Virus record (IMG/VR): IMGVR_UViG_2724679237_000006
Location: 1-52,515 of that record
Length of the DNA stretch: 52,515 bases
Source of the DNA: a virus
Lineage: Duplodnaviria; Heunggongvirae; Uroviricota; Caudoviricetes
Reading direction: 5' to 3' (one strand)
Made by a program: the position numbers and the translations under genes. Below, in pieces: positions 1,584-36,798 of this stretch; positions within the stretch are counted from its first letter, which is position 1; the number at the start of each line of letters is the position of its first letter. The notes below the pieces were generated by a model. The model searched no databases and was not told the origin of the DNA. It was given only the letters and a program-made list of their open reading frames with translations.

Positions 1584-2693
1584 TCACTCTGTTTCTGCTA
1601 TCCATTCCGGGATTTTTGCCTCAAGCTCAAGCTGCGTGGTAAAGCCGCTGTTATCAATGGAGTGCTCGGCTTTTGCAATAATCCAGTCCTGATTATCAAT
1701 CTCGCTTTTAAATCCTGTTACCGTGCCATGCATTTCGGGGTAGAGTTCTGCGCGTCCACGCGCCAGCGTGATGGAGAATGATGCGGCTCCGCGTTGTAGC
1801 TGCTGCCACTTTGCCGCCGCTGCGCGTCTTGCTGCCTGCTCGTTCTGATAAGTCTTGCGTAACACAAACACGTTGCCTTCCGCACCTTCCATATAGTCAC
1901 CTTCACGGCTGCTGCTTTTCTCCTTTTTGGGTTTTGGCGGTTTGCGGCGTTTCACGCTGACTTTTTTCTTTTTCCCGTAATTAAGATCAAGCCAGTAAGC
2001 GCGTACCCCCGTATACGCCTCGCGGTCAGCAATGCGAAACTGATGGCGATCGCCGCTGCTGCGTGTGATGGCAAACGATGGTAATGGTTTTCCCTGCGCG
2101 TTCACGCCACCACCTGGCATGATGAATAACAGATTACCGCTTTTTACCGTGGTGATTGCGCCCAGCATTTCCGCCATGCGTGTAAGGAAGGACATGTCGC
2201 TTTCTTCGGTCTGGTCAGCGTGGTCGATTTCAATATCCATCAGCATTTCGCTGATTTGCGGTTTCAGGCCGTATCGGTGAGCAATTGCAGACACCACGCG
2301 TTCAACGGTCACATCATGCCAGGATACTTCGCGCTTGACGTTAAATTCATCCCGAAAATCTGCGCTTCTGGCTGAAATGGTCAGTCTGTCGGGCGGTCCT
2401 TCATGAGCAATTTCATCAACAATGTAAGTGCCTTTTTCTGTCAGCGGTTCGCCTTTCCAGCCAATGAGAACCGTCAGGCGAGCGCCCCGTGGCGGCAACT
2501 GCAACTGACCATCAGCATCATCCAGCGTGATGGTTAGCTGGTCTGCTTCAAATCCCCGGTTGTCGGTCAGTGACAGGCTCATCAGGCGTTCTGTCACACC
2601 GGACAGCGTTTTCCCCTCCGCGAGAATATCAAAATCAGGCATCTTCACGGGGTCAGTACTCTGGTTGAACAGTTGCATGGTGGTGTCAATCAT
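1584..2693 (-). CDS. D: Tail protein D (late control gene D)
   Basis: ORF 1584-2825; probable start at internal ATG 2693 preceded by GGGAGGGAG RBS (MIDTTMQLFNQ...). LSLTDNRGFEADQLTITLDDADGQL region typical of gpD. Confidence 0.85.
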   Translation of the reverse strand: MIDTTMQLFNQSTDPVKMPDFDILAEGKTLSGVTERLMSLSLTDNRGFEADQLTITLDDADGQLQLPPRGARLTVLIGWKGEPLTEKGTYIVDEIAHEGPPDRLTISARSADFRDEFNVKREVSWHDVTVERVVSAIAHRYGLKPQISEMLMDIEIDHADQTEESDMSFLTRMAEMLGAITTVKSGNLLFIMPGGGVNAQGKPLPSFAITRSSGDRHQFRIADREAYTGVRAYWLDLNYGKKKKVSVKRRKPPKPKKEKSSSREGDYMEGAEGNVFVLRKTYQNEQAARRAAAAKWQQLQRGAASFSITLARGRAELYPEMHGTVTGFKSEIDNQDWIIAKAEHSIDNSGFTTQLELEAKIPEWIAETE

Positions 2694-2850
2694 CGGCTCC
2701 CTCCCTGTGCAGCATGGTCGCATGTGTGTGCGGGCGGGGTTACTGCTTTTTGTTGTCGCCGGGCGGCAAGAACGGCGCAGGGATGAGATTACGCGCGTGG
2801 TGGGTGATGATTGTTGCCGAATCATTTAACGGATACAAGGGGCTGGAACT

Positions 2851-4035
2851 ATGAGTGAAACTCGCTTTCATGGCGCCCGCGTTACGGAAAGTACCGACCT
2901 GGTAACAGCAATTAACGACGTTGATTCCAGCGTTATCGGTATCGTGGCAACGGCGGACGATGCGGACGCGAAGCTGTTCCCGCTGAACAAGCCTGCATTA
3001 GTGACCCGCGTCAATGACGTGCTGGGAAAATGCGGGACAACGGGGACGCTGTACCGTGCGCTGAAACCCATTGCAGACCAGGTGAGCACAAAGGTGATCG
3101 TCGTTCGCGTGGCTGAACACAAAGAAGAAGACGGAAAAACACAGGATCAACTGGTTATCGGTGGTTCTGAATCCGACGGCAGCTATACGGGGATGTATGC
3201 GCTGCTTGTTGCAGAGCAGGATGAAAGCATCGGATACCGTCCGCGTATTCTGGCCGCGCCGGGGCTGGACACGGAGGCGGTGACAAAATCCCTGTGCGTG
3301 ATTGCAGGTAAACTGCGCGCGTTTGTGTATGCCTCCTGTCATGGCTGTAACACGATGGCTGAAGCCATTGCATACCGTGAAAAATTCAACGAACGCGAGC
3401 TGATGCTCCTGTGGCCGGACTTCATCGCTTACAACCCGAAAAGTGGCGAGAATGAGGTTTTCCCCGCGCCAGCCTATGCGTGCGGCCTTCGTGCGTACAT
3501 TGACCATGAGCAGGGCTGGCACAAATCGCTGTCCAACGTTCCGGTCAAAAATGTGCTGGGGATGTCCAGGCATGTGTTCTGGTCGTTGCAGGCCGAAGAC
3601 AGCGATGCCAACAGCCTCAACAACAAAGAAATCACAACCATCATTCGCCGCAACGGGTTCCGCTTCTGGGGTAACCGTACGCCGGAAACGAACGCCTACA
3701 TTTTTGAGGTGTATACCCGAATCGCACAGGTGCTGGCTGACACGGTTGCGGAAGCGCAGTTTGAAACCATCGACAGTCCACTGACGCCTGCGAACGTGAA
3801 GGACGTCATCAGTGCCATCAGGGCAAAACTGGATTCGCTGGTTACTGCCGGGAAACTGATTGGCGCATCGTGCTGGTATGACATCGTGGATAACAGCACC
3901 ACAGAATTACGACAGGGGCGCGTGCGTATTCGCTATAAATATACGCCCGTTCCTCCGCTGGAAGATATGGAGCTTTACCAGGCGTTCACTGATGAGTTCT
4001 TTGGTCCTGCATTTGCAGTGCTTGGAGGTGCTTAA
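2851..4035 (+). CDS. FI: Tail sheath protein FI
   Basis: 394 aa; strong similarity to P2 FI as recalled (FPLNKP, KLRAF, RELM..WPDF, EQGWHK.LSNV, IRRDGFRFWGNRT, YTPVPPLE). Confidence 0.9.
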   Translation: MSETRFHGARVTESTDLVTAINDVDSSVIGIVATADDADAKLFPLNKPALVTRVNDVLGKCGTTGTLYRALKPIADQVSTKVIVVRVAEHKEEDGKTQDQLVIGGSESDGSYTGMYALLVAEQDESIGYRPRILAAPGLDTEAVTKSLCVIAGKLRAFVYASCHGCNTMAEAIAYREKFNERELMLLWPDFIAYNPKSGENEVFPAPAYACGLRAYIDHEQGWHKSLSNVPVKNVLGMSRHVFWSLQAEDSDANSLNNKEITTIIRRNGFRFWGNRTPETNAYIFEVYTRIAQVLADTVAEAQFETIDSPLTPANVKDVISAIRAKLDSLVTAGKLIGASCWYDIVDNSTTELRQGRVRIRYKYTPVPPLEDMELYQAFTDEFFGPAFAVLGGA

Positions 4036-18855: not shown

Positions 18856-19653
18856 TTAACCGCGCTTCGCCTTCTGCGTCGCGGTGGTTTTTCGTGTTGC
18901 AGGCTTCCGCGTTGTCTTTTTACTTTTGCTGCTTTCGTCCTGCGCCTGCTGTGCGCTGGCAACTGGTGCGGCTGCGGAATCGGCTTTTTTCAGGGCGCGG
19001 GAAAGGGTTGCAATCTCGCGTTTCACACCTGCGTTCGGGTTCAGGTGCATCGCTTCGCGCAGCAGCTTCAGTGATGAGGCCATGCTGTCCGCATCGCTCA
19101 GGCCACGGCGGGCAAAGGCGCACGCCTTGCATAATTTGGCGCGCACTTCGTCCGGCATATCCTGGTTGGCGACAATTTCCCAAAGTGTGTCCAGTGGTTC
19201 GATAAAGGTGGACAAATCCGCGTCGGCATCCGTCCCGGCCTGCGTCAATACCGGGTTGCAGATTTCTTCGGTCAGCACTGTGGCAGCAGTACGGCCAAAG
19301 TTATCCGGCATGATGAGGTTGTGACGGACCACATACGCACCAATACGCAGCGCAAGCGGAAGATCGCCGCAGTCAATCGCCCACACCATCAGCGTGGCAA
19401 TCACTTCATCCTGCTGCCCGCCGTCAGCCTCCAGCGTTCCCTCAATCCAGCCGGAAAAGTCCGGTAACAACTCTTTTTTGATGGCGGCTTTCGCGCTTCT
19501 GGCCTGTACGCCCTTAAGCCGGGCCTGTGCCAGACGCAGACGATACAGCACCTCTTCATGCGCGGTACGCGCGGCGTGGTCCACGCCTTCATTCGCCCGG
19601 CCTGCGCGCTGTGCCATCACGTTCTGCCAGTGTTGCTGTGCAGGAGTAATCAT
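18856..19653 (-). CDS. M: Terminase endonuclease (small) subunit M
   Basis: 265 aa with basic Lys/Thr-rich C-terminus, between N and L. Confidence 0.75.
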   Translation of the reverse strand: MITPAQQHWQNVMAQRAGRANEGVDHAARTAHEEVLYRLRLAQARLKGVQARSAKAAIKKELLPDFSGWIEGTLEADGGQQDEVIATLMVWAIDCGDLPLALRIGAYVVRHNLIMPDNFGRTAATVLTEEICNPVLTQAGTDADADLSTFIEPLDTLWEIVANQDMPDEVRAKLCKACAFARRGLSDADSMASSLKLLREAMHLNPNAGVKREIATLSRALKKADSAAAPVASAQQAQDESSKSKKTTRKPATRKTTATQKAKRG

Positions 19654-21765: not shown

Positions 21766-23517
21766 ATGATTCAGGACGCTTTTGTGCGCCAGCGTGCGCG
21801 ACAACTTTACTGGCAGGGTTACCCGCCCGCAGAAATATCACGTCTGATGGGAATAAACCCGAACACGATTTATGCGTGGAAAAAACGCGACCAGTGGGAT
21901 GAAACGCCACCCGTGCAGCGTGTCACGCAGTCCATCGATGCGCGCCTTATCCAGCTTACTGAAAAACAGAATAAAACAGGTGGTGACTTCAAGGAAATAG
22001 ACCTGCTGACCCGGCAGCTTAAAAAACTGCATGATGGCCAGCCGGATGCGAAGGCCACAGGAAAGAAAGGCCGGGCGAAAAAACTTAAAAATCATTTCAC
22101 GCCGGAACAGATTGCCGCACTGCGGGAAAAAATTACCAGCAGGCTGGCCGGACATCAGCGCAAATGGTTTGAGGCTATCGGTGCCTGTGAGCGTGCCGGA
22201 GTTACTGACAGGATGATTCTGAAATCCCGACAGATTGGGGCGACCTGGTATTTTGCACAGGAAGCACTGCTGATGGCGTTACGTGACGATGTGGCACAAC
22301 CTTACCAGCGTAACCAGATTTTTTTGTCAGCGTCGCGTCGTCAGGCGTTCCAGTTTAAAAACATCATTCAGAAGGCTGCATCTGAAGTTGATGTGGAGCT
22401 GAAAGGGGGCGATAAAATTATCCTCTCCAACGGCGCAGAGATGCATTTTCTCGGCACTTCTGCGGCCACCGCGCAATCGTACACGGGGAATCTGTATTTT
22501 GATGAGTTTTTCTGGACGGGGCGTTTCACAGAGCTGCGCAAGGTGGCCGCTGCTATGGCAACGCTGGATGGTTTGCGGTGTACCTATTTTTCCACGCCAT
22601 CAAGTGAAACACATGAGGCGTATGCATACTGGAATGGTGATCGCTGGAATGAAGGGCTTCGTGCTCATAAACGTCAGCATTTTGATGTGAGCTGGAATGC
22701 ACTTCATAACGGCCTTATCTGCCCTGACTACATCTGGCGGCAAATTGTGACGCTGGAAGATGTGGTCAATCAGGGATGGACGTTAACCAGCATTGACAAA
22801 ATCCGACGCAATAACACTGAAGACGAGTTCCGCAATCTCTATATGTGTGAATTTGTTCGCGAAGGGGAATCGGCATTTAACCTGAATATCCTGATTGGCT
22901 GCGGTGTTGACGGATACGACGACTGGAAAGACTGGAAACCTTTTGCTCCCCGCCCGATGGGGAATCGCCCGGTATGGATTGGGTATGACGCAAACGGCAG
23001 CAGTGGCAACGGCGACAGCGGCGCTGTGTCCGTGGTGGTTCCTCCGGCTGTTCCTGGTGGCCGTTTTCGAACGGTGGAGACGCGACGCGTTCAGGGGCTG
23101 GAATTTGAAGAACAGGCCAGAGTCATTGAAGAGTTCACGTATCGCTACAACGTGGAACACATCGGCATTGATGTGACGGGCGGGAACGGGGAGGCTGTTT
23201 ATCAGATAGTGAAACGGTTTTTCCCTGCGGCTATCCCGTACACCTTCACGCTGTCATCAAAACGGTCGCTGGTACTGAAAATGCTGCAAATAATGCGTGC
23301 CGGACGGTGGGAATACGATCGCGCTGAACGTGAGCTGGTTGCGGCCTTTAACGCCGTGCGTAAGGTAAAAACGGCGGGTGGTTTCATTACTTACGAAACG
23401 GACCGTGCTAGGGGGATCAGCCACGGCGACCTTGCGTGGGCAACCATGCTTGCAGTCATTAACGAACCGATTGGCGGCGAAGGAGAAAACGAGCGTTTCA
23501 CGGTTATGGAGTTCTGA
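21766..23517 (+). CDS. P: Terminase ATPase (large) subunit P
   Basis: 583 aa, divergent from O, followed by portal. Confidence 0.85.
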   Translation: MIQDAFVRQRARQLYWQGYPPAEISRLMGINPNTIYAWKKRDQWDETPPVQRVTQSIDARLIQLTEKQNKTGGDFKEIDLLTRQLKKLHDGQPDAKATGKKGRAKKLKNHFTPEQIAALREKITSRLAGHQRKWFEAIGACERAGVTDRMILKSRQIGATWYFAQEALLMALRDDVAQPYQRNQIFLSASRRQAFQFKNIIQKAASEVDVELKGGDKIILSNGAEMHFLGTSAATAQSYTGNLYFDEFFWTGRFTELRKVAAAMATLDGLRCTYFSTPSSETHEAYAYWNGDRWNEGLRAHKRQHFDVSWNALHNGLICPDYIWRQIVTLEDVVNQGWTLTSIDKIRRNNTEDEFRNLYMCEFVREGESAFNLNILIGCGVDGYDDWKDWKPFAPRPMGNRPVWIGYDANGSSGNGDSGAVSVVVPPAVPGGRFRTVETRRVQGLEFEEQARVIEEFTYRYNVEHIGIDVTGGNGEAVYQIVKRFFPAAIPYTFTLSSKRSLVLKMLQIMRAGRWEYDRAERELVAAFNAVRKVKTAGGFITYETDRARGISHGDLAWATMLAVINEPIGGEGENERFTVMEF

Positions 23518-24563
23518 TGAGCAGAAAAAATAAAAAAGTGCGCATGAGTTCACGCATTGATCTCGCTGATGTGCTCAGGAAAGAATCGTCGCTCAGTGCA
23601 TTCACATTTGATGGTCCTTATCGCCTGACTGGGCATGACCTGCTGGACAATATGTACTGTGCTGATAACGGGCGGTGGTATGAAACCCCGGTGGACTGGT
23701 ACGGTCTGGCAAGAGCTGCCCGGCAAACGTCCTGGCATCAGTCTGCGCTTTACTTTAAGCGCAATGTATTACTCGGTTGCTACATCCCGCACCCGTTGCT
23801 TTCCCGGCAGGATTTCTCGGCGCTGGCGCTGGACTGGTTTGTGTTCGGTAACGCATTCCTTGAGCTTCGAAGCAATATGCTCGGCGAACCGCTTAAATTA
23901 CGGCACGCCCTGGCGAAATACATGCGACGCGGAAGCGATCTTGAATCATGGTGGTATGTGCAGGATGGTAAGGACGCGTTTCAGTTTCGCCCTGGTAAAG
24001 TGTGCCACCTGATGAATCCTGACATTAACCAGGAAATCTACGGCATGCCGGAATATCTCGGCGCATTACTCTCGGCCAGCCTGTCTCATTCGGCGGACAT
24101 GTTCAGAAAACTGTATTACGACAACGGATCCCACGCCGGGTGCATCATCTACATCGGTGCAGCGCAGGTAAACCGCGAAAGCATGGACTCCCTGAAAGAA
24201 ACGCTACAGGGTGCACGTGGTGGTGGTGCGTTTAAAAACGTGCTCATTCATGCGCCCAACGGGGGCAAAGAGGGGGTGCAAATTTTGCCGTTCCAGCAGA
24301 TCACCGCAAAGGATGAGTTCATGAATGTTAAGGCGGCATCCCGTGATGATGTGCTGGCTGCGCACCGCGTTCCGCCGCAACTGATGGGGGCGATGCCGGG
24401 TGAAAAAAGTGCGTTTGGTGATGTGGAGAAGGCCGCGCGGGTTTACGCAATTAACGAGCTGATGCCCGTCATGGAGGCCATGAAGCACATCAATGACTGG
24501 CTGGGCGAAGAGGTGATCCGCTTTAACCCTTACGCACTGTTAGACACCCAGCCCACAGCCTGA
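23517..24563 (+). CDS. Q: Portal protein Q
   Basis: 348 aa directly after P (ATG overlaps the P stop). Confidence 0.85.
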   Translation: MSRKNKKVRMSSRIDLADVLRKESSLSAFTFDGPYRLTGHDLLDNMYCADNGRWYETPVDWYGLARAARQTSWHQSALYFKRNVLLGCYIPHPLLSRQDFSALALDWFVFGNAFLELRSNMLGEPLKLRHALAKYMRRGSDLESWWYVQDGKDAFQFRPGKVCHLMNPDINQEIYGMPEYLGALLSASLSHSADMFRKLYYDNGSHAGCIIYIGAAQVNRESMDSLKETLQGARGGGAFKNVLIHAPNGGKEGVQILPFQQITAKDEFMNVKAASRDDVLAAHRVPPQLMGAMPGEKSAFGDVEKAARVYAINELMPVMEAMKHINDWLGEEVIRFNPYALLDTQPTA

Positions 24564-24587
24564 CGCGCTTCGCTTGTCTGCTGCTTC

Positions 24588-24612
24588 GCCGGGGCATAAA
24601 AAATTTATGCCC
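24588..24612 (+). other. Perfect hairpin (ggggcataaa-aaa-tttatgcccc) downstream of Q
   Basis: 10-bp perfect inverted repeat; no strong T-run, so function unclear (terminator or cos-region structure). Confidence 0.4.
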
Positions 24613-24984
24613 CGACTCTCCAGCTCCTGTATCAGTCAGATAATTTCACGACGCCTTCCAGTTTATCGCCACCATCGACGGTCAGACTCTTACGCAATCC
24701 CACCGCGTTGACTGTATGTTCTCGCCGCCTCAGTGCGATTTTGACGGCCTTACCTTTCAACCCATCAAATCAAAAACCCTTACGTCTTTTTCACGCTCAG
24801 CGTGAGAAATACAGCCATTCTGTTGTGTCGCTGCGACATCGCTCGGGGAATGCTATTTACCCCCTGAAACGCGGGCTGTTCCCCCGTCACCTGCGCGCAG
24901 AAAAAACGCGTTTTTTTGTGCACGCACGGATCCTTGACGGATCCAGCCACCACGCGGGCCGGAAGGGTAAAAAGTCGTTCAAAA

Positions 24985-25017
24985 AAATTGTGCAAATTTG
25001 TGCACTATTGTGCATTG
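24985..25017. repeat. Three phased TTGTGCA direct repeats (attgtgcaaa / tttgtgcact / attgtgcatt)
   Basis: 10-11 bp spacing, immediately distal to the parR terminator; candidate protein-binding iterons. Confidence 0.4.
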
Positions 25018-25022
25018 AAATA

Positions 25023-25043
25023 AACGCCCTGGAGGAGGGCGTT
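25023..25043 (-). terminator. Terminator downstream of parR
   Basis: Stem aacgccct / agggcgtt with loop ggagg; T-rich tract follows on the minus strand. Confidence 0.5.
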
Positions 25044-25096
25044 TTGCTCATCTATTTATAGCCTTGCCCCTTACTGGCCAGCGCCCTGATGTTGTG

Positions 25097-25408
25097 TTAT
25101 TCGGGAAATAACGCCCGGATATTTCCGGCTATCTGACTGGTTATCTGTGCGGTGGGCGCTGGCTGTAACATGTGGCGTTCTGCCCTGGTTTGTGTCACTG
25201 ATAACGCCTCATCATCAGCCCATGCAGACAGTCGGTAAGCCTCTGCCGGATTCATTTTCAGAAGTGCCAGCCCGGCCAGAAAAGCCACGCGTTGGCCGCT
25301 TTTGCGGGCTTCTGGTGTAAGGCTGTCCAGCCAGTCGCATGCTTTGCCTTCGTTCTTGACGGCGGCTGGCTTCAGATAGAAACTTATTCTTCTGGTTAAT
25401 GTCGCCAT
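25097..25408 (-). CDS. parR: ParR-like centromere-binding adaptor
   Basis: Aligns with plasmid R1 ParR as recalled: ISFYLKP...CDWLDS...ER......A.LAGLAL....P and C-terminal I.GNIRALFP. Confidence 0.8.
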   Translation of the reverse strand: MATLTRRISFYLKPAAVKNEGKACDWLDSLTPEARKSGQRVAFLAGLALLKMNPAEAYRLSAWADDEALSVTQTRAERHMLQPAPTAQITSQIAGNIRALFPE

Positions 25409-25414
25409 GGAGGG

Positions 25415-26374
25415 TTACTCCTTATCCATAGCGTACAGACCGTTAACCAGAGCAAACTGTGGCACCCCGTCTGTGATGAAATTCGCATTGACTCCATAGA
25501 CTTCATGGACTGCGGGTGCCACAATCTCCGCTCCTCCACCGACAACCAGCACCCGCCCGTAACCCGAAAAGCCCGCGAGTGCGCGGATCACGCGTTGTTT
25601 TAGTGTCTCCTCCTTTTCACGAATAACTGCCATCAGGCTGTTGTAATGCGCGTCATTGTGGATGTGCCGGCGCAGCCAGGCTTCATCGTGACGATGTTCA
25701 ATAACGGTACTGGCGACGTGGTGACTGGTACGCATGCCGTTGGCGGCCATCACCGACAACACGGCATCGGTCATCAGGGAAACGCCCACATGTGGATCGC
25801 AAAATACCTGGCTGATGCCTGCCAGTTGCCCCTGAACCTTTGCCACATCCAGCGTTGTTCCGCCTAAATCCACAATCAGCAGAGATTCAAACGGACTCAT
25901 GTCAGCCAGTGCCTTAAAGCCAGCCGGAATGGATTCAGGCATAACCCGCACGTTGCGGATAGTGAATGCTTCACCGTTCTGGTACTCCACAGGGCGCAGG
26001 ACATTCGCTTTTTTGCGGTTGATGTTGGCCATGTCCGGCTGTGCGTTTGTATCGAAATACTCGCTCAGTGGCAGAGTGACAACCACGTCCACTTCCTGTG
26101 GTGTGATACCTGATTTGACCAGCGCGTGATGAATGGCAATGACATTCACATCGCTGTACTGGTATTGCGTGTCGGTCGTCTGGACAAAGCGATCGCTGAC
26201 CGGATCAAAACCATAGCGCACGCCATCAAGCATGTAGTTCGCGGGCTGCGTGCCACCGAACGGCGCAGACCATTCCGACTTGAAGCTGTTCGGGCTGATG
26301 GCGTTGCGGCGTTCGCCGTTCTCAGTCCATGCCAGCTTGATGTTGGTGGAGCCGTCGTCGATGCAAATTTTCAT
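25415..26374 (-). CDS. parM: ParM actin-like segregation ATPase
   Basis: MKICIDDGSTNIKLAW...ISPNSF...YSDVNV.A.HHAL..SG......VD.V.T.PL.E......IDLGGTTLD...GGGAE match R1 ParM/StbA along the full length. Confidence 0.9.
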   Translation of the reverse strand: MKICIDDGSTNIKLAWTENGERRNAISPNSFKSEWSAPFGGTQPANYMLDGVRYGFDPVSDRFVQTTDTQYQYSDVNVIAIHHALVKSGITPQEVDVVVTLPLSEYFDTNAQPDMANINRKKANVLRPVEYQNGEAFTIRNVRVMPESIPAGFKALADMSPFESLLIVDLGGTTLDVAKVQGQLAGISQVFCDPHVGVSLMTDAVLSVMAANGMRTSHHVASTVIEHRHDEAWLRRHIHNDAHYNSLMAVIREKEETLKQRVIRALAGFSGYGRVLVVGGGAEIVAPAVHEVYGVNANFITDGVPQFALVNGLYAMDKE

Positions 26375-26402: not shown

Positions 26403-26516
26403 TCGTTTACGGGATTCTGAAATCCCGCTTTTGCCTGTTTTGTGCGCGTTTCATATATCGCGGCGTGTTTTTCGCTCATTTACGGGATTTGTGAATCCCG
26501 TTTCTGTCTGTTTTTT
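26403..26516. repeat. parC-like centromere: two ~40-bp direct repeats each with a 16-bp palindrome, upstream of parM
   Basis: tttacgggattctgaaatcccg...ctgtttt (26404-26442) and tttacgggatttgtgaatcccg...ctgtttt (26476-26516); inner palindromes gggattctgaaatccc and gggatttgtgaatccc. Confidence 0.55.
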
Positions 26517-33295: not shown

Positions 33296-34297
33296 ATGTC
33301 GGTTCGTAAGATTCCATCAGGTAAATGGCTTTGCGAATGTTATCCTTACGGGGCATCGGGAAAACGTATTCGTAAACAGTTTGCGACAAAAAGTGAGGCG
33401 CTCTCTTATGAGCGCCGTTTAATGAATAGTAGAGTTGGAGACGAGTTTCAAGATGGTTCTGGTCCTCGTCTTTCTGAGTTGGTTGCTCGTTGGTTTGAGA
33501 TGTACGGTAAAACCTTGTCCTCTGGTGCAGAGCGCAAAGTCAAACTTGAGTCTATTTGTTCCAGGCTGGGAGATCCATTTGCTTCTCAGTTTGACAAAAA
33601 TATGTTTGCTACTTATCGGGAAAGGAGGTTATCAGGAGAATGGAATCCCAAGGGGAAGAAAAAACTTAGTGAAGCAACCGTTAATCGCGAGCAGTCATAT
33701 CTACATGCTGTTTTTGCCGAACTGAAGCGCCTTGGGGAGTGGTCTGGTGAAAACCCCCTGACTGGCATTCGCAAGTTTCGTGAGGAAGAAAAGGAATTGG
33801 CGTTTCTGTATGTAGATGAGATTGAACGCCTTCTGATTGCGTGTGATGAGTCACGGAATAAAGATTTGGGGGTTGTTGTCCGTATTGGGCTTGCGACTGG
33901 TGCTCGGTGGAGTGAAGCTGAAGGATTAAAGCAATCTCAAGTGCTGCCCGGTCGAATCACATTTGTTAAAACTAAAGGAAAGAAGAACCGCACTGTACCG
34001 ATTTCACCTCAATTGCAGGCTATGCTTCCTAAAAAACGAGGAGCGTTATTTTCACCATGTTATGAGGCTTTTGACGCTGCAATTAAGAGAGCGAAGATCG
34101 AGCTTCCTGATGGGCAATTAACTCATGTGCTACGTCACACGTTTGCCAGTCATTTTATGATGCGGGGAGGAAATATTCTTGTGTTGCAAAAAATACTGGG
34201 GCATAGCGATATAAAAATGACTATGCGTTATGCGCATTTTGCTCCAGGTCATTTAGAGGCTGCAGTTGAATTGAACCCTTTTGACAATAGAGGGTAA
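33296..34297 (+). CDS. int: Tyrosine integrase, P2 Int-like
   Basis: 333 aa; GKRIRK.F..KSEA, GARWSEA, RITFVKTK..K.RTVPIS, LRHTFASHFMM.GG.I..LQ.ILGH....MTMRYAHFAP match P2 Int as recalled, including catalytic R..H..R..Y. Confidence 0.9.
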   Translation: MSVRKIPSGKWLCECYPYGASGKRIRKQFATKSEALSYERRLMNSRVGDEFQDGSGPRLSELVARWFEMYGKTLSSGAERKVKLESICSRLGDPFASQFDKNMFATYRERRLSGEWNPKGKKKLSEATVNREQSYLHAVFAELKRLGEWSGENPLTGIRKFREEEKELAFLYVDEIERLLIACDESRNKDLGVVVRIGLATGARWSEAEGLKQSQVLPGRITFVKTKGKKNRTVPISPQLQAMLPKKRGALFSPCYEAFDAAIKRAKIELPDGQLTHVLRHTFASHFMMRGGNILVLQKILGHSDIKMTMRYAHFAPGHLEAAVELNPFDNRG

Positions 34298-34588: not shown

Positions 34589-35605
34589 TCATTTTCTCTG
34601 GCCACCAACTACGGGCACTACTTTAACTTTCCGGTCATATGCTGCTGTCTGTCGCGGGTTCTTATGCCCGGAAATTGCTTGCTTCTCTTCCAGGCTGCCT
34701 TCCAGATCAGAGATACCTTTTGCTTTCAGATCATGAAATGTGAAGTCTATTTGCAGATGAGGATATTTTTCCTGTGCTGCCGCTTTGACATCACGCCAAC
34801 GAGAGTTAAAACCATCACGGGTATACTTGCCACCGGTAGTTTGATGAATCACAAACAGGCTACTGATTCCCGTTTTTAATGGCAGAGAACGAGCCAGAGC
34901 TATCGCTTTCTGCAGACGAGGCGACCAGGCTTTGATTTGCTTAACGCCGGTTTTTCCCTGACGAATGTAGATCCCGGAATCGAACAGCTGGTCTTTCTGC
35001 AATGAAAGTACATCACTCTGTCTGGCCACGCATAAGTAGGCAATCTCCATTGCTACGCGAACAACATCAGGAGACACTTCATAAACGGCCTGATATTCTT
35101 CATCCGTAATATAACGTTCGCGAGCTTTCTCTTTAAACTGTTTAACTCCCTGACAAGGATTCCTCTGAACATAACCTCGTTCATAACCCCAACGGAATAC
35201 CCGGGACATAAAGCTTTTTTCCCTGTTTGCCTGAGTTCGGCTTGATAAACCGCGTTGATCCATATAGCGCCGAATATGTTCAGGTTTGATTTTATCCGGG
35301 TCGATCTTCCCGAAGACAGGCAGAACTTTTCCGGAATATTTTGTGTAGTCTTTCCGGGTTTCGACTGCCAAATCCATAAAATCAGGGGAGGTCATGAATT
35401 GTTCCGTGAGCGCCTGAAAAGTATTTCTTTCTTTTTCGTCACCGACCGCTTTTTCATATGCCAGCCATACGGCTGATCGTGGTGCATCCAATGCGCACAG
35501 GCGTATCGCTTTGTTATCTTTATTCCTGAATTCGTAGGCCGCTTTGCCCTGGTAAACACGAGGCGGCATCCAGTTATCTGCTGGGTTCTTTCTCTTTCCG
35601 GCCAT
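34589..35605 (-). CDS. int: Tyrosine integrase (lambda Int family) of a second element
   Basis: ORF 34589-35635; N-terminal arm-binding-like MAGKRKNP..NWMPPRVY and C-terminal catalytic region (HDLKAKGISD...GH....TAAYDR). Confidence 0.85.
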   Translation of the reverse strand: MAGKRKNPADNWMPPRVYQGKAAYEFRNKDNKAIRLCALDAPRSAVWLAYEKAVGDEKERNTFQALTEQFMTSPDFMDLAVETRKDYTKYSGKVLPVFGKIDPDKIKPEHIRRYMDQRGLSSRTQANREKSFMSRVFRWGYERGYVQRNPCQGVKQFKEKARERYITDEEYQAVYEVSPDVVRVAMEIAYLCVARQSDVLSLQKDQLFDSGIYIRQGKTGVKQIKAWSPRLQKAIALARSLPLKTGISSLFVIHQTTGGKYTRDGFNSRWRDVKAAAQEKYPHLQIDFTFHDLKAKGISDLEGSLEEKQAISGHKNPRQTAAYDRKVKVVPVVGGQRK

Positions 35606-35837
35606 TAAATATTGCTCCAAAATCAGGTTCATCATCTTTTCGCGTCGTCACCTCCTGTAAATTGCGAAATTTTATTGGGTTCATGAAATGGCCCCAGGTT
35701 GTTTTTGGGTGTCCGTCAGCCCTTTCCATGAAGAAAATTCCAGCCCGGCGAAGAGCCTCACATTGCTTTGATTTAAGTGGGCTTCCCGTCAGCTCGACCA
35801 TTTCTTCTCTGGTGATTATGTCGTGATCGCTTTTCAT
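35574..35837 (-). CDS. Excisionase-like / small DNA-binding protein
   Basis: 87-aa ORF immediately upstream of and overlapping int; ITREEMVELTGSPLKSKQCEALRRAG is HTH-like. Confidence 0.4.
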   Translation of the reverse strand: MKSDHDIITREEMVELTGSPLKSKQCEALRRAGIFFMERADGHPKTTWGHFMNPIKFRNLQEVTTRKDDEPDFGAIFNGRKEKEPSR

Positions 35838-36046: not shown

Positions 36047-36229
36047 TTATTTCTGATTAGGCGTAATCAGTTCTTGTGGGGTGAATGCCGATTTCTCCCG
36101 AGTGACCTTAATGTTTTCTGGCAGGTGTAGCCCAAGTTCGCAGCGGCTCCGTGCTTCAATAATGCCATTGGTACCATCGGCAAGTACCAGGTGAACCGCG
36201 TCACCACGCTTTAATGTGAGTTTAAGCAT
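36047..36229 (-). CDS. Hypothetical protein
   Basis: 60-aa ORF. Confidence 0.3.
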   Translation of the reverse strand: MLKLTLKRGDAVHLVLADGTNGIIEARSRCELGLHLPENIKVTREKSAFTPQELITPNQK

Positions 36230-36798
36230 TAGCGTATCCTCAGTGACCGTTCGCCGCGTTCCATATGTGCGCCTGGTACCGGGTTTAATAACTCGGCTGG
36301 TGGTGTTTCTCCACGCGCCAGTATTTCGGCGGCAACCGCCTCCGCAGATTCAATCACTTCTTTAATGGCTCGCTTGTTTGGTGTAATAACCGTTTCTACA
36401 TCAACAAGTGACACACCCTCATACTCGTCCGGGATCTTATCTTTGTTATCAATAATTACCCGGATAGCCCCCTGTGCATCAGTAAATGTGTTTTTTGCGG
36501 TTTTCAGTTTATCCAGGCCAGCAGCTTGCAGGCAGGCGAGCATATGCTTTCGAATTGCTTTTTCCTTGCCTTCAAAGGACGTCTTACGGGTAGCCAGGCG
36601 AGACATTTCTTCAGCGCAGGTATTGGCATTGCCCTGTAAATTGCGGCAGATGACCATCATGACGTCCAGTTTGTCTCCCAGTTCTCCTTCCATACCTTCA
36701 AGCGTGTCGGCGATCATCTCTGGCGTCAGTTCGTCGGAGGTTTCCAGCAGGTCAATCAGGCTGACATATTCTTTTGCAATAGCGATAGCGGTGCTCAT
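36229..36798 (-). CDS. Gp157-like recombination-associated protein
   Basis: 189 aa acidic protein directly downstream of the SSAP gene; pattern resembles the Sipho_Gp157 family, from memory. Confidence 0.45.
   Translation of the reverse strand: MSTAIAIAKEYVSLIDLLETSDELTPEMIADTLEGMEGELGDKLDVMMVICRNLQGNANTCAEEMSRLATRKTSFEGKEKAIRKHMLACLQAAGLDKLKTAKNTFTDAQGAIRVIIDNKDKIPDEYEGVSLVDVETVITPNKRAIKEVIESAEAVAAEILARGETPPAELLNPVPGAHMERGERSLRIR

Follow-up and report, generated by a model that had tools for sequence, protein, structure and literature searches.

A probable cos region between the portal and parR genes of a P88-like, P2-family prophage

Gene context of the locus

The window, meaning the whole 52,515-nucleotide stretch of viral DNA that was analysed, contains a prophage of the P88-like type (Xuanwuvirus, Peduoviridae), with which phage P88 is collinear over ~830-31271. 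Pfam matches, together with this collinearity, give the gene order gpP - gpQ (portal) - non-coding gap - parR - parM - gpA. The portal gene gpQ (23517-24563, + strand; Pfam Phage_portal) is the last gene ahead of the proposed cos region, as in P2, and its product is 99-100% identical to the portals of P88-like phages and 47% identical to that of P2. It is preceded by gpP, the terminase large subunit (21766-23517, + strand; Pfam Terminase_6N, Terminase_6C and Terminase_5), in which residues 6-63 form an N-terminal helix-turn-helix of the gpP-like type (Terminase_5). The terminase small subunit, gpM, is encoded at 18856-19653 on the − strand (Pfam Phage_term_smal, PF05944, E = 1e-36) and would act in trans as a candidate reader of the TTGTGCA repeats described below; gpP, a presumed nuclease/ATPase, is a second candidate. 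Both genes of a cognate P2-type terminase reside in the same element as the cos candidate. On the far side of the gap lie two − strand genes, for a ParR/StbB-type protein (25097-25408; Pfam Plasmid_stab_B) and ParM (25415-26374; Pfam StbA_N/ParM), followed by gpA, which was also confirmed by Pfam.

The gap itself spans 24564-25096. The small open reading frames annotated inside it in P88 were dismissed as genes, since a comparison of 72 variants revealed no substitution pattern with 3-base periodicity in any of them. A search of the gap against Rfam returned zero matches to known RNA families. An earlier sequence-only reading had listed a hairpin, a palindrome, a pair of GGATCC motifs and phased TTGTGCA repeats in this gap, and had expected a cos region there, beyond portal Q. 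All four motifs are present, within 2 nt of the coordinates given there, and the expected location was right: the layout of the gap is that of the P2, 186 and P4 cos regions.

The stem-loop and spacer downstream of the portal gene

The first feature of the gap, 26 nt past the Q stop codon, is a stem-loop on the + strand (24590-24614) with a 3-nt loop. It had been described as a hairpin with a perfect 10-bp stem at 24588-24612; the perfect pairing held, but the stem is 11 bp long and its arms occupy 24590-24600 and 24604-24614. Folded as RNA, the + strand reaches -22.2 kcal/mol (z = -5.3) and the − strand -28.9 kcal/mol (z = -6.0); the element is nearly invariant among the 72 variants. The same 70-bp stem-loop module is found 3' of an ogr/delta-like gene in another P2-like prophage, where the copy carries a compensatory change (CATAAA/TTTATG to CAAAAA/TTTTTG). 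At the equivalent place, tQ is annotated in P2 and tW in 186. No T-run follows the stem-loop on either strand, and a simple terminator scan did not flag it. The element is probably the 3'-end stem-loop of the late P-Q transcript.

From this stem-loop to the predicted cleavage site extends a non-coding spacer of ~260 bp (24615-24872), which includes an imperfect inverted repeat at 24784-24812. The spacer is specific to the P88 lineage, being 94-97% conserved in P88-like phages and unalignable in other genera. The distance from Q to cos is accordingly 310 nt in the window, compared with ~170-180 nt in P2 and 186.

A predicted cosN

The cos sites of P2, 186 and P4 are described, in later papers citing the original study, as having 19-nt 5' cohesive ends within a conserved core of 55 bp (Ziermann & Calendar 1990, cited in PMC5694545, PMC3931495 and PMC9594776). 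A direct search of the window with the P2 19-mer, GGCGAGGCGGGGAAAGCAC, found no site within 3 mismatches; the sequence-only reading had been unable to match the P2/186 cos by eye because the site has diverged. The predicted counterpart is a C-rich 19-mer on the + strand at 24873-24891, for which the P2 convention gives a predicted overhang of 5'-GGTGACGGGGGAACAGCCC-3'. Ungapped, this sequence agrees with the P2 19-mer at 13/19 positions, a score that is not significant alone, and with one gap at ~15. Such loose matching is uninformative, as the window holds 12 sites of at least 13/19, the candidate and 11 others.

The proposed homology to the P2 cohesive end rests instead on an intermediate, on conserved flanks and offsets, and on an invariant run. 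In Klebsiella phage 3LV2017 the corresponding sequence reads ...CCCCCGCCTCGCC followed by TGCGCGC, and it links the 19-mer of the window to the CCCCGCCTCGCC of P2. With respect to the dyad and TGCA sites downstream, the 19-mer is placed as in P2, 186 and P4. The longest invariant run among the 72 distinct P88-like variants is exactly 19 nt, at 24873-24891, and the 24-mer GGGCTGTTCCCCCGTCACCTGCGC recurs exactly in lineages whose portals are 68-73% identical. A portal gene is present in every locus having upstream DNA among the 80 loci that carry the exact 24-mer. The P88-type site was thus not seen in a satellite context among the loci with upstream DNA. All 45 distinct P4-like satellite sequences carry a cos of the ATGCA type.

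The right boundary of the predicted cosN is uncertain by ~2 nt, and its left 4-5 nt are less certain. The register of the 19-mer in a MAFFT alignment differs by 1-2 nt from that of the anchored alignment. In addition, 5 nt (GCGGG) of the left edge are missing from phage P88_4B11, so that either the left boundary is uncertain or this record is erroneous. We infer both the exact nick positions and the length of the overhang. The ends of GenBank records were considered as proxies for physical ends and were set aside. The P88_4B11 record is cut at window position 24969/24970 with neither overlap nor gap, as though a circular assembly had been opened at an arbitrary point; the record of 500465-2 ends elsewhere; and the end of contig L037, 47 nt past the 19-mer and considered as a virion end, is actually the end of an insertion sequence.

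The dyad, the palindrome and the GGATCC pair

The 19-mer is directly followed by an imperfect dyad (24892-24926, arms 24892-24906 / 24912-24926), the counterpart of the hairpin CGCCCGCTTCACGGGGCGG-TTTT in the 55-bp cos core of P2 and P4. That core consists of the 19-mer, the dyad and, on the right-end side, TTTTAATGCA; its architecture is present in the window and the dyad sequence has diverged. Alignment to known P2-family cos sites, which the sequence-only reading had proposed as a check, revealed an architecture shared across 10 lineages, in which the invariant columns are a CCCCG.C.C core, GC.C, the T-run and the TGC of the proximal repeat.

The dyad contains a T-run and the palindrome noted earlier at about 24901-24917, which is AAAAAACGCGTTTTTT, a perfect 16 bp at 24901-24916. 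The two GGATCC motifs separated by TTGAC were likewise found, at 24928-24933 and 24939-24944, as part of a direct repeat of ACGGATCC (24926-24944; two copies, 11-bp spacing) that could fold into a GGATCC-TTGAC-GGATCC hairpin (-10.4 kcal/mol, z = -2.3). Although both motifs are real, neither the perfect palindrome nor the GGATCC pair is conserved outside the P88 lineage. Across genera, it is the TGCGCGC and T-run after the 19-mer that are conserved, whereas the perfect palindrome is not: the A6CGCGT6 sequence is absent from phiT5282H, ST16phi5.4 and 3LV2017, and its position 24906 is polymorphic among P88-like variants (A in 45/72, G in 27/72). Lineages with ~70% portal identity have one GATCC left in place of the pair. 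G+C-rich dyads occur in the cos spacers of 186, P4, ENT90 and LPM4, and some G+C-rich dyad lies near the position of the GGATCC pair in most relatives. By these comparisons, both A6CGCGT6 and the GGATCC pair are features of particular lineages.

TTGTGCA repeats at fixed offsets

Three phased TTGTGCA repeats had been recognised in the gap, and these are present at 24988-24994, 24998-25004 and 25008-25014 (+ strand); a fourth exact copy, at 24916-24922, had been overlooked. The latter, proximal copy is the counterpart of the AATGCA that closes the 55-bp core of P2 and P4, where TGCA stands at +26; in the window its TGCA begins 28 nt after the 19-mer. The first distal copy lies 72 bp downstream, beyond a 65-bp spacer, and the distal array (24988-25014) has a 10-bp period, with TGCA at +100, +110 and +120 (Tandem Repeats Finder: period 10, 3.1 copies). 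Shuffled sequences predict 13.2 copies of TTGTGCA in the 52.5-kb window, of which 7 are observed, 4/7 of them within 99 bp; for a phased triple, GTGCA-N5-GTGCA-N5-GTGCA, the chance expectation is 0.12 per window. The stretch that leads into the distal repeats (24969-24987) includes AAAAA and AAAAAAA. These A-tracts may form an intrinsic bend, and the A7 tract is conserved in lineages of the GTGCA type.

The same arrangement of one proximal and three distal sites is found in other P2-family elements. P2, 186 and P4 show, in order, the cos 19-mer, a hairpin, TTTT, AATGCA at +26 and three ATGCA at +98, +108 and +120/121, compared with GTGCA at +28, +100, +110 and +120 in the window. Distal offsets of +98/100, +108/110 and +118/121 also hold in phiT5282H, ST16phi5.4, 3LV2017, Yen31.17 and ENT90, although the spacers cannot be aligned. 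This extended feature of three nTGCA sites was derived here from P2, 186, P4, 61 P2-lineage tails and 45 satellite tails. Among the 61 distinct P2-lineage tails the intervening DNA is essentially unalignable (median pairwise spacer identity 32%), yet TGCA is present at +26 in 56/61, at +97-99 in 49/61, at +107-109 in 42/61 and at +116-122 in 41/61. Expressed per position, the three distal offsets have a TGCA frequency of 0.166, 56-fold above the 0.003 of the remaining positions beyond +36. In P4-like satellites TGCA occurs at +26, +98, +108 and +121 in 43-44 of the 45 distinct sequences.

On this comparative evidence, the 19-mer and the four fixed-offset TGCA sites are under strong purifying selection in phages and in P4-type satellites. 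Both 19-mer and repeats are retained where portal identity has fallen to only ~70%, and the array is conserved, amid hypervariable DNA, from P2 and P4-type satellites to lineages with 47% portal identity. The repeat unit differs between lineages, being ATGCA in P2, 186 and P4, GTGCA in P88-like phages and related phages of Klebsiella and Enterobacter, and ATCCTT, distally, in an Aeromonas phage. In the latter, LPM4, the proximal CATGCA is kept while ATCCTT repeats replace the distal TGCA triple, a mismatch from which it follows that proximal and distal sites may have different protein readers. No recognisable cos was found within 1.5 kb of the portal gene in 4/8 extra genera (4LV2017, ST15phi14.1, Ralstonia and Shewanella phages); in the Klebsiella phages 4LV2017 and ST15phi14.1 a cargo gene lies directly 3' of the portal gene.

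The junction with the cargo hotspot

Immediately beyond the array the gap becomes a junction (25015-25096) with a hotspot of variable cargo, which comparison of P88-like loci indicates is empty in the window. Of 80 P88-like loci, nearly all lose homology to the window at 25013-25017, or at 25028-25091 where a hairpin is shared, and regain it at 25081-25098; the interval is filled by 0.45-2 kb of unrelated cargo. Only 1/80 of these sampled close relatives (L019) has an empty hotspot like that of the window. Cargo starts directly past the third repeat both in P88-like loci and in lineages with ~70% portal identity. The hairpin (25022-25044) is terminator-like and could act on both strands, with folds of -16.3 and -15.2 kcal/mol; the gpA-parM-parR transcript probably ends there.

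Interpretation and alternative explanations

The gap 24564-25096 is most likely, with a probability that we place at roughly 0.7, where an integrated prophage of the P88-like, P2-family type has its DNA-packaging (cos) region, and the distal array is proposed to be a cosB-like terminase-recognition array. The comparisons show the homology and position of the module, and the gap would be a diverged representative of an already known type of P2-family cos site. In relatives the gap is not coding, and no other cos candidate was found. Indirect experimental support comes from P2, whose cosmids were transduced ~10^4-fold better when the 55-bp core had longer flanking sequences (PMC9594776).

Since the repeats lie 83 bp past the parR stop codon and, like ParR iterons, are short units recurring once per helical turn, they might alternatively be a parC-like centromere bound by the ParR of the adjoining parMR operon, both of whose products were confirmed by Pfam. 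The sequence-only reading had left the choice between cos- and par-associated sites open; the comparisons support the former and not the latter. The same 1+3 layout, with the same repeats at the same cos offsets, is present without parMR in the stretches examined of P2, 186, P4, P4-like satellites and 3LV2017, the last of which has only a methyltransferase between its portal gene and gpA. In P88, phiSM and most relatives, moreover, 0.45-2 kb of cargo separates the repeats from parR, and the repeats stay on the portal/cos side. The repeats are therefore independent of parMR. Type II centromeres, as in R1 parMRC, are iterated ParR-binding repeats that lie upstream of parM and overlap its promoter, and upstream of parM in the window a palindrome, CGGGATTnnnnAATCCCGTAAA, occurs twice (26406-26427 and 26479-26500; 0.01 expected by chance). 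This pair is likely parC, a separate candidate centromere, and the assignment of the TTGTGCA repeats to partition is scarcely credible. Cleavage at the palindrome is also very improbable. Under this scenario GCGCGCA (24893-24899) would be aligned with that of P2, and the cohesive end would be GAAAAAACGCGTTTTTTTG (24900-24918); in its favour, GCGCGCA directly precedes the 19-mers of P2, 186 and ENT90, and the palindrome has a twofold symmetry that lambda cosN shares in part. However, the palindrome varies at 24906 within the P88 lineage itself, and phiT5282H, ST16phi5.4 and 3LV2017 have unrelated sequence in its place while keeping GGGCTGTTCCCCCGTCACC or its relatives, followed by TGCGCGC. In 3LV2017 the clearly P2-like ...CCCCCGCCTCGCC has gcgcgcg before it and TGCGCGC after it, and with a cut at the palindrome the TGCA sites would lose their otherwise fixed distances.

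Two further explanations concern what reads the distal repeats. They could be a transcriptional element, either a promoter or operator for cargo genes transcribed away from cos or a − strand terminator keeping read-through out of cos. The third ATGCA of P2 does overlap the -35 region of the old promoter (transcript start at P2 33424/33426, ~150 nt past cos), and on the − strand of the window GTGCACAAATTTGCAC followed by AATTTTTTTG, comprising repeats 1-2 and the A7 tract, scores as a weak terminator-like hairpin. Nevertheless, a scan of 24400-25500 on both strands gave no promoter-like (sigma-70) site, and as the next gene is convergent in 186, P4 and the window, there is nothing for a promoter to drive. 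A 5-bp stem leaves unexplained the third repeat, the proximal site 72 bp away and the fixed distance from the 19-mer, and P4-like satellites keep the array even though psu converges on it. A transcriptional role is thus judged distinctly unlikely. It is also unlikely, if somewhat less so, that the repeats are read by a host bending or nucleoid protein, or by some other phage protein with a replicative or regulatory role, instead of by terminase; such a protein would help cos to function or serve another purpose. Host IHF acts between the terminase sites of lambda cosB, which provides a precedent, and A-tracts flank the TTGTGCA repeats here. Against this, the motif varies among E. coli phages that share a host (ATGCA in P2, 186 and P4, GTGCA in P88-like phages) and becomes ATCCTT in the Aeromonas phage, variation that is better accounted for by a phage-encoded reader than by a host factor. 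Furthermore, cos has been described as the sole region homologous between satellites and their helpers (PMC9122126); as satellites are packaged by the helper terminase, this points to terminase as the reader.

Proposed mechanism and significance

In the packaging interpretation, terminase, composed of gpM and of gpP with its N-terminal helix-turn-helix, would bind the one proximal and three distal TTGTGCA sites. The 72 bp between proximal and distal sites correspond to ~7 helical turns, which would place them on roughly the same face of the helix, and the spacer DNA between them probably bends. Terminase so bound would position its nuclease for staggered nicks at the 19-mer. We infer the repeat-reading protein, the bending and the direction of packaging. 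The essential packaging signal would end at the third repeat, with the cargo hotspot starting directly beyond it, and the hairpin at 25022-25044 would close the convergent gpA-parM-parR operon.

A more general proposal, which we regard as tentative, is that the packaging signals of the P2 family exceed the 55-bp core and include one proximal and three distal repeats at fixed offsets, forming a cosB-like array whose lineage-specific motif sets helper specificity. If the proposal is correct, the type of repeat would decide which helper terminase packages which phage, satellite or cosmid, and P88-like phages would not recognise P4-type satellites, and vice versa; the data offer a testable basis for the packaging specificity between helpers and satellites. 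On the comparative data, efficient packaging in the P2 family would seem to need ~140 bp on one side of the cut and not the 55-bp core alone, a point that bears on how P2/P4 cosmids and transducing particles are designed. The analysis also places the packaging site of P88-like prophages, which are common in E. coli, Citrobacter, Klebsiella and Enterobacter and for which a literature search found no physical mapping of P88-like/Xuanwuvirus virion ends or cos. In addition, it defines the left edge of the P88-like cargo/defence hotspot as the base after the third repeat. None of these cos-site findings overturns current understanding.

Comparison with known systems

The closest known systems are the cos sites of P2, 186 and P4. 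In common with these, the region in the window follows portal Q and precedes the hotspot on the gpA side, has the same order of elements and is accompanied by cognate gpM and gpP. It differs in its repeat unit, (T)TGTGCA instead of (A/C)ATGCA, and in its dyad, which is A/T-rich (A6CGCGT6) where theirs are G+C-rich. The likeness to lambda cosN and cosB (R3-I1-R2-R1, with gpNu1 and IHF) is by analogy only and lies in a nicking site that has, on one side, one proximal and several distal short repeats with a possibly bent spacer between them, together a terminase-loading array. There is no sequence similarity between the two, and the small terminase encoded in the window belongs to a different family (Phage_term_smal, PF05944). 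P2, furthermore, is reported by Pruss and Calendar to package from monomeric circles. To R1-type parMRC, in which ParM is StbA and ParR is StbB, the locus is related through the ParM and ParR homologues that adjoin the gap, but the TTGTGCA repeats lie downstream of parR and are present in phages without parMR. Lastly, a cargo/defence hotspot adjoining cos is a known feature of the P2 family (the tin/old locus; Rousset et al. 2022, PMC9122126), and the relatives of this prophage likewise carry their cargo in the interval from the cos module to the gpA side. In the window this hotspot is empty, and in P88-like phages parM-parR is situated between it and gpA.

Genomic context of the gap

The gap at 24564-25096 separates the portal gene Q from parR; gpQ, ParR (Plasmid_stab_B) and ParM, together with gpP, gpM and gpA in the window, are identified by Pfam. 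BLAST against phage and plasmid records assigns the element to a P88-like prophage (Xuanwuvirus, Peduoviridae, P2 family), collinear with phage P88 from its position ~830 to 31271. Its gene order matches that of P2, with gpM, gpN and gpO on the minus strand, gpP and gpQ on the plus strand, the gap, and then gpA on the minus strand. In P88-like phages, parM-parR come after gpA, taking up some of the space where P2 has tin/old.

At 25097-26374, an R1-type parM-parR operon lies inside an integrated, integrase-bearing P2-family prophage, and 'plasmid' records of E. coli and Shigella that are circular and phage-sized (NZ_CP148288.1, 34.5 kb; NZ_CP049283.1, 26.8 kb) contain near-identical P88-like sequence. 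Together, these observations suggest that P88-like phages may have the capacity to persist as plasmids, in the manner of phage-plasmids. The P88-like integrase is followed directly by a second integrase in the opposite orientation and a Sipho_Gp157-family gene (33296-34297, plus strand; 34589-35635 and 36229-36798, minus strand), so that the window's right part belongs to another prophage, unrelated to the first and adjoining it. No tRNA genes were found anywhere in the window.

A layout shared with P2, 186 and P4

Tandem Repeats Finder detects three TTGTGCA copies, starting at 24988, 24998 and 25008 with a 10-bp period. The sequence-only reading had recorded this phased triple and missed a fourth exact copy at 24916-24922, 72 bp ahead of the first. 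Over the full window the motif is below expectation (7 copies versus 13.2 expected), four of its seven copies fall inside 99 bp, and a phased triple is expected by chance 0.12 times per window. Reading of the sequence, together with a repeat finder, likewise bore out the palindrome AAAAAACGCGTTTTTT (24901-24916), which lies within a longer imperfect dyad (24892-24926), and the two GGATCC motifs, contained in two copies of ACGGATCC (24926-24933 and 24937-24944). The hairpin reported earlier is real, although it spans 24590-24614, with a 3-nt loop and a perfect stem of 11 bp, instead of the 10-bp stem at 24588-24612 given before.

When the record ends of P2, 186 and P4 are joined and oriented as the window, all three read as the 19-nt cohesive-end sequence (19-mer), a hairpin (CGCCCGCTTCACGGGGCGG), TTTT and AATGCA, with TGCA starting at +26 from the 19-mer; ~65 bp of dissimilar sequence follows, then three ATGCA sites with TGCA at +98, +108 and +120/121. 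The first 55 bp of this layout match the "55-bp core" that PMC5694545 and PMC3931495 cite from Ziermann & Calendar. The window has the same order: the predicted cosN GGGCTGTTCCCCCGTCACC (24873-24891), a dyad containing A6CGCGT7, TGTGCA at +28, a 65-bp spacer and three TGTGCA sites at +100, +110 and +120. The ungapped match of the window candidate to the P2 19-mer (13/19) is not significant alone. P2, 186, P4, the window and Enterobacter phage phiT5282H all place the second site 72 bp from the first; in Klebsiella phage ST16-OXA48phi5.4 this distance is 71 bp.

Conservation in the P88 lineage

All of 80 IMG/VR loci with portals 99-100% identical to that of the window contain a conserved block that runs from the Q stop codon to 25013-25017, at 92-99% identity, and in some of them shared sequence runs on to 25028-25091. 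The conserved block thus stops exactly where the third TTGTGCA does. Beyond it, 79 of the 80 carry varied, unrelated cargo of 0.45-2 kb, such as the memP gene in phiSM or the 'carboxylate-amine ligase' and hypothetical genes of P88, and homology returns at 25081-25098, a little ahead of the parR stop codon. This hotspot (25015-25096) is empty in the window and in a single other locus, L019.

The longest invariant run among 72 distinct block variants is exactly 19 nt and coincides with GGGCTGTTCCCCCGTCACC at 24873-24891. None of the small ORFs in the block shows codon periodicity in its substitutions across these variants, so the "hypothetical proteins" annotated within the P88 gap are probably not genes. 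Selection does not strictly maintain the perfect palindrome: position 24906, which lies within it, is A in 45 variants and G in the other 27.

Several individual records depart from this pattern. P88_4B11 (Xuanwuvirus, NC_049391.1), linearised at the window equivalent of 24969/24970, is missing GCGGG (5 nt) at the left end of the 19-mer and has an internal T>C change in this otherwise invariant sequence; these differences may be real variation or an assembly error. In the last 47 nt of IMGVR_UViG_2681813261_000011, homology breaks 2 nt past the 19-mer, between GTCACCTG and GGTAATGACTCCAACTTATTGATAGTG, and the sequence past the break resembles an IS1 terminal inverted repeat; the cos region of this prophage appears to be split by an insertion sequence. 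An extra insert of ~525-585 bp occurs in PhiR44_2 (2679-3203 of its locus) and vB_EcoM-569R5 (2677-3201), as a minus-strand ORF between the portal gene end and the stem-loop, and in a third locus, L089, just past the stem-loop. They reveal a further, smaller site of insertion that lies on the Q side of cos; one is likewise reported for phiCTX and RSY1-like phages.

More distant relatives

Several genera keep the cos skeleton while the rest of their intergenic DNA is unalignable. phiT5282H (Novemvirus) has an identical 19-mer, then TGCGC, with TTTTTTGTGCA at +28 and AAAAAAATTGTGCAAATTTGTGCACTATCGTGCA at +100 to +120. ST16-OXA48phi5.4 reads GGGCTTGCCCCCCGTCACC-TGCGCGC, then CGTGCA at +28 and distal phased units TTTGCA, TGTGCA and AGTTCA, the TGCA of the first two lying at +99 and +109. 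Klebsiella phage 3LV2017 (CTTGCTCCCCCGCCTCGCC-TGCGCGC) bridges the P2 and window sequence types, since the right half of its 19-mer is P2's CCCCGCCTCGCC and the TGCGCGC beside it is that of the window. In Yersinia phage 31.17 and Erwinia phage ENT90 the repeats are of the ATGCA type. Aeromonas phage vB_AsaM_LPM4 retains the 19-mer, dyad and proximal CATGCA, with four ATCCTT(T/C) repeats ~95-140 nt past the 19-mer instead of the TGCA triple; this phage shows that distal and proximal sites can diverge independently, and its lineage may have changed the distal recognition motif.

A MAFFT alignment of ten cos modules has invariant columns in a CCCCG.C.C core, GC.C, the T-run and the TGC of the proximal site; two distal sites also have columns of invariant T. 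Its 19-mer register differs by 1-2 nt from that of the anchored alignment, and the cut region is thus given to within ~2 nt. An exact IMG/VR scan for the 24-mer GGGCTGTTCCCCCGTCACCTGCGC hit at least 119 contigs. Eighty loci were read, and each one with DNA upstream of the 24-mer has a portal gene on that side, at 200-935 nt. The 24-mer is retained in 22 of these with portals just 68-73% identical to the window's, most of which also retain the site at +28 together with all three at +100, +110 and +120; the 22 diverge directly after the third repeat.

Independent tests in P2-lineage phages and satellites

In 80 loci with portals 99% identical to that of P2, homology to P2 itself ends at +28-30 (74/78). 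The 61 distinct tails have essentially unrelated spacers (median pairwise identity 32%), with TGCA at +26 in 56, +97-99 in 49, +107-109 in 42 and +116-122 in 41. Beyond +36, TGCA occurs at 0.166 per position in the three distal intervals and at 0.003 elsewhere.

P4-like satellites are packaged by the terminase of their helper. They were gathered through Psu, including relatives with 62-64% Psu identity, and 43-44 of 45 distinct sequences have TGCA at +26, +98, +108 and +121; in one variant, the three distal sites are moved jointly by 6 nt. As cos has been described as the sole homologous region between satellites and helpers (PMC9122126), these sequence data provide the strongest argument that the whole array of one proximal and three distal sites is part of the packaging signal. 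This fits the report that longer flanks around the 55-bp core improve transduction of P2 cosmids ~10^4-fold (PMC9594776).

cos or par?

Lying between Q and parR, the repeats could alternatively have been ParR-binding sites, as the sequence-only reading allowed. This is rejected, because TTGTGCA-type repeats are also found in elements with no parMR in the stretches examined (there is none between the portal gene and gpA of 3LV2017), they remain on the cos side of the cargo in relatives, and separate palindromes occupy the place upstream of parM, where a type II centromere is expected. These are two copies of CGGGATTnnnnAATCCCGTAAA (26406-26427 and 26479-26500, minus strand), 73 bp apart (0.01 expected by chance), one just upstream of parM and the other near the gpA 3' end. 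The pair is a likely candidate for the ParR-binding centromere/operator (parC) of this phage-borne parMR, and differs from the 11-bp iterons of R1. The cos assignment, by comparison, is supported by the layout common to P2, 186, P4 and further genera.

Accessory elements

The stem-loop at 24590-24614 is nearly invariant among the 72 variants and occupies the same place as the annotated terminators tQ (P2) and tW (186). A 70-bp module containing it (24559-24628) recurs in another P2-like prophage (CP061270.1, 17064-17133), where it follows an ogr/delta-like zinc-finger gene and two stem positions have changed in a compensatory way; it thus behaves as a portable transcript-end unit. As it has no U-tract, it is called a transcript-end stem-loop, not a proven intrinsic terminator. 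The GGATCC pair is specific to the P88 lineage; lineages with ~70% portal identity have a single GATCC in its place, and in many others the spacer holds a G+C-rich dyad of some kind. Between cos and the convergent parR, a hairpin at 25022-25044 (9-bp stem, -15 to -16 kcal/mol, T-rich tails on both strands) was not flagged by a simple terminator scan; it probably ends the gpA-parM-parR(-cargo) transcript ahead of cos.

Proposed mechanism and comparison with known systems

The terminase would recognise the proximal and distal TTGTGCA sites, the candidate readers being gpM (small subunit) and/or the N-terminal helix-turn-helix of gpP (large subunit). E. coli phages differ in the motif, some having ATGCA and others GTGCA, so a phage-encoded reader is more likely than a host factor. 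The 72-bp separation, ~7 helical turns, is kept even where spacer sequence varies freely, which suggests that the spacer is bent and that a protein bridges it, or wraps it, between the proximal and distal sites; the nuclease would then make a staggered cut at the 19-mer. We infer the cut positions, overhang length, reader identity, bending and packaging direction; no physical end mapping for the P88-like lineage was found in the literature searched. The conserved extended architecture is a by-product that could prove useful. The evidence supports the gap as a cos region, a new, diverged example of the P2-family cos sites already known, and by analogy its array may be likened to R3-I1-R2/R1 of lambda, in which a bent spacer is bridged or wrapped.
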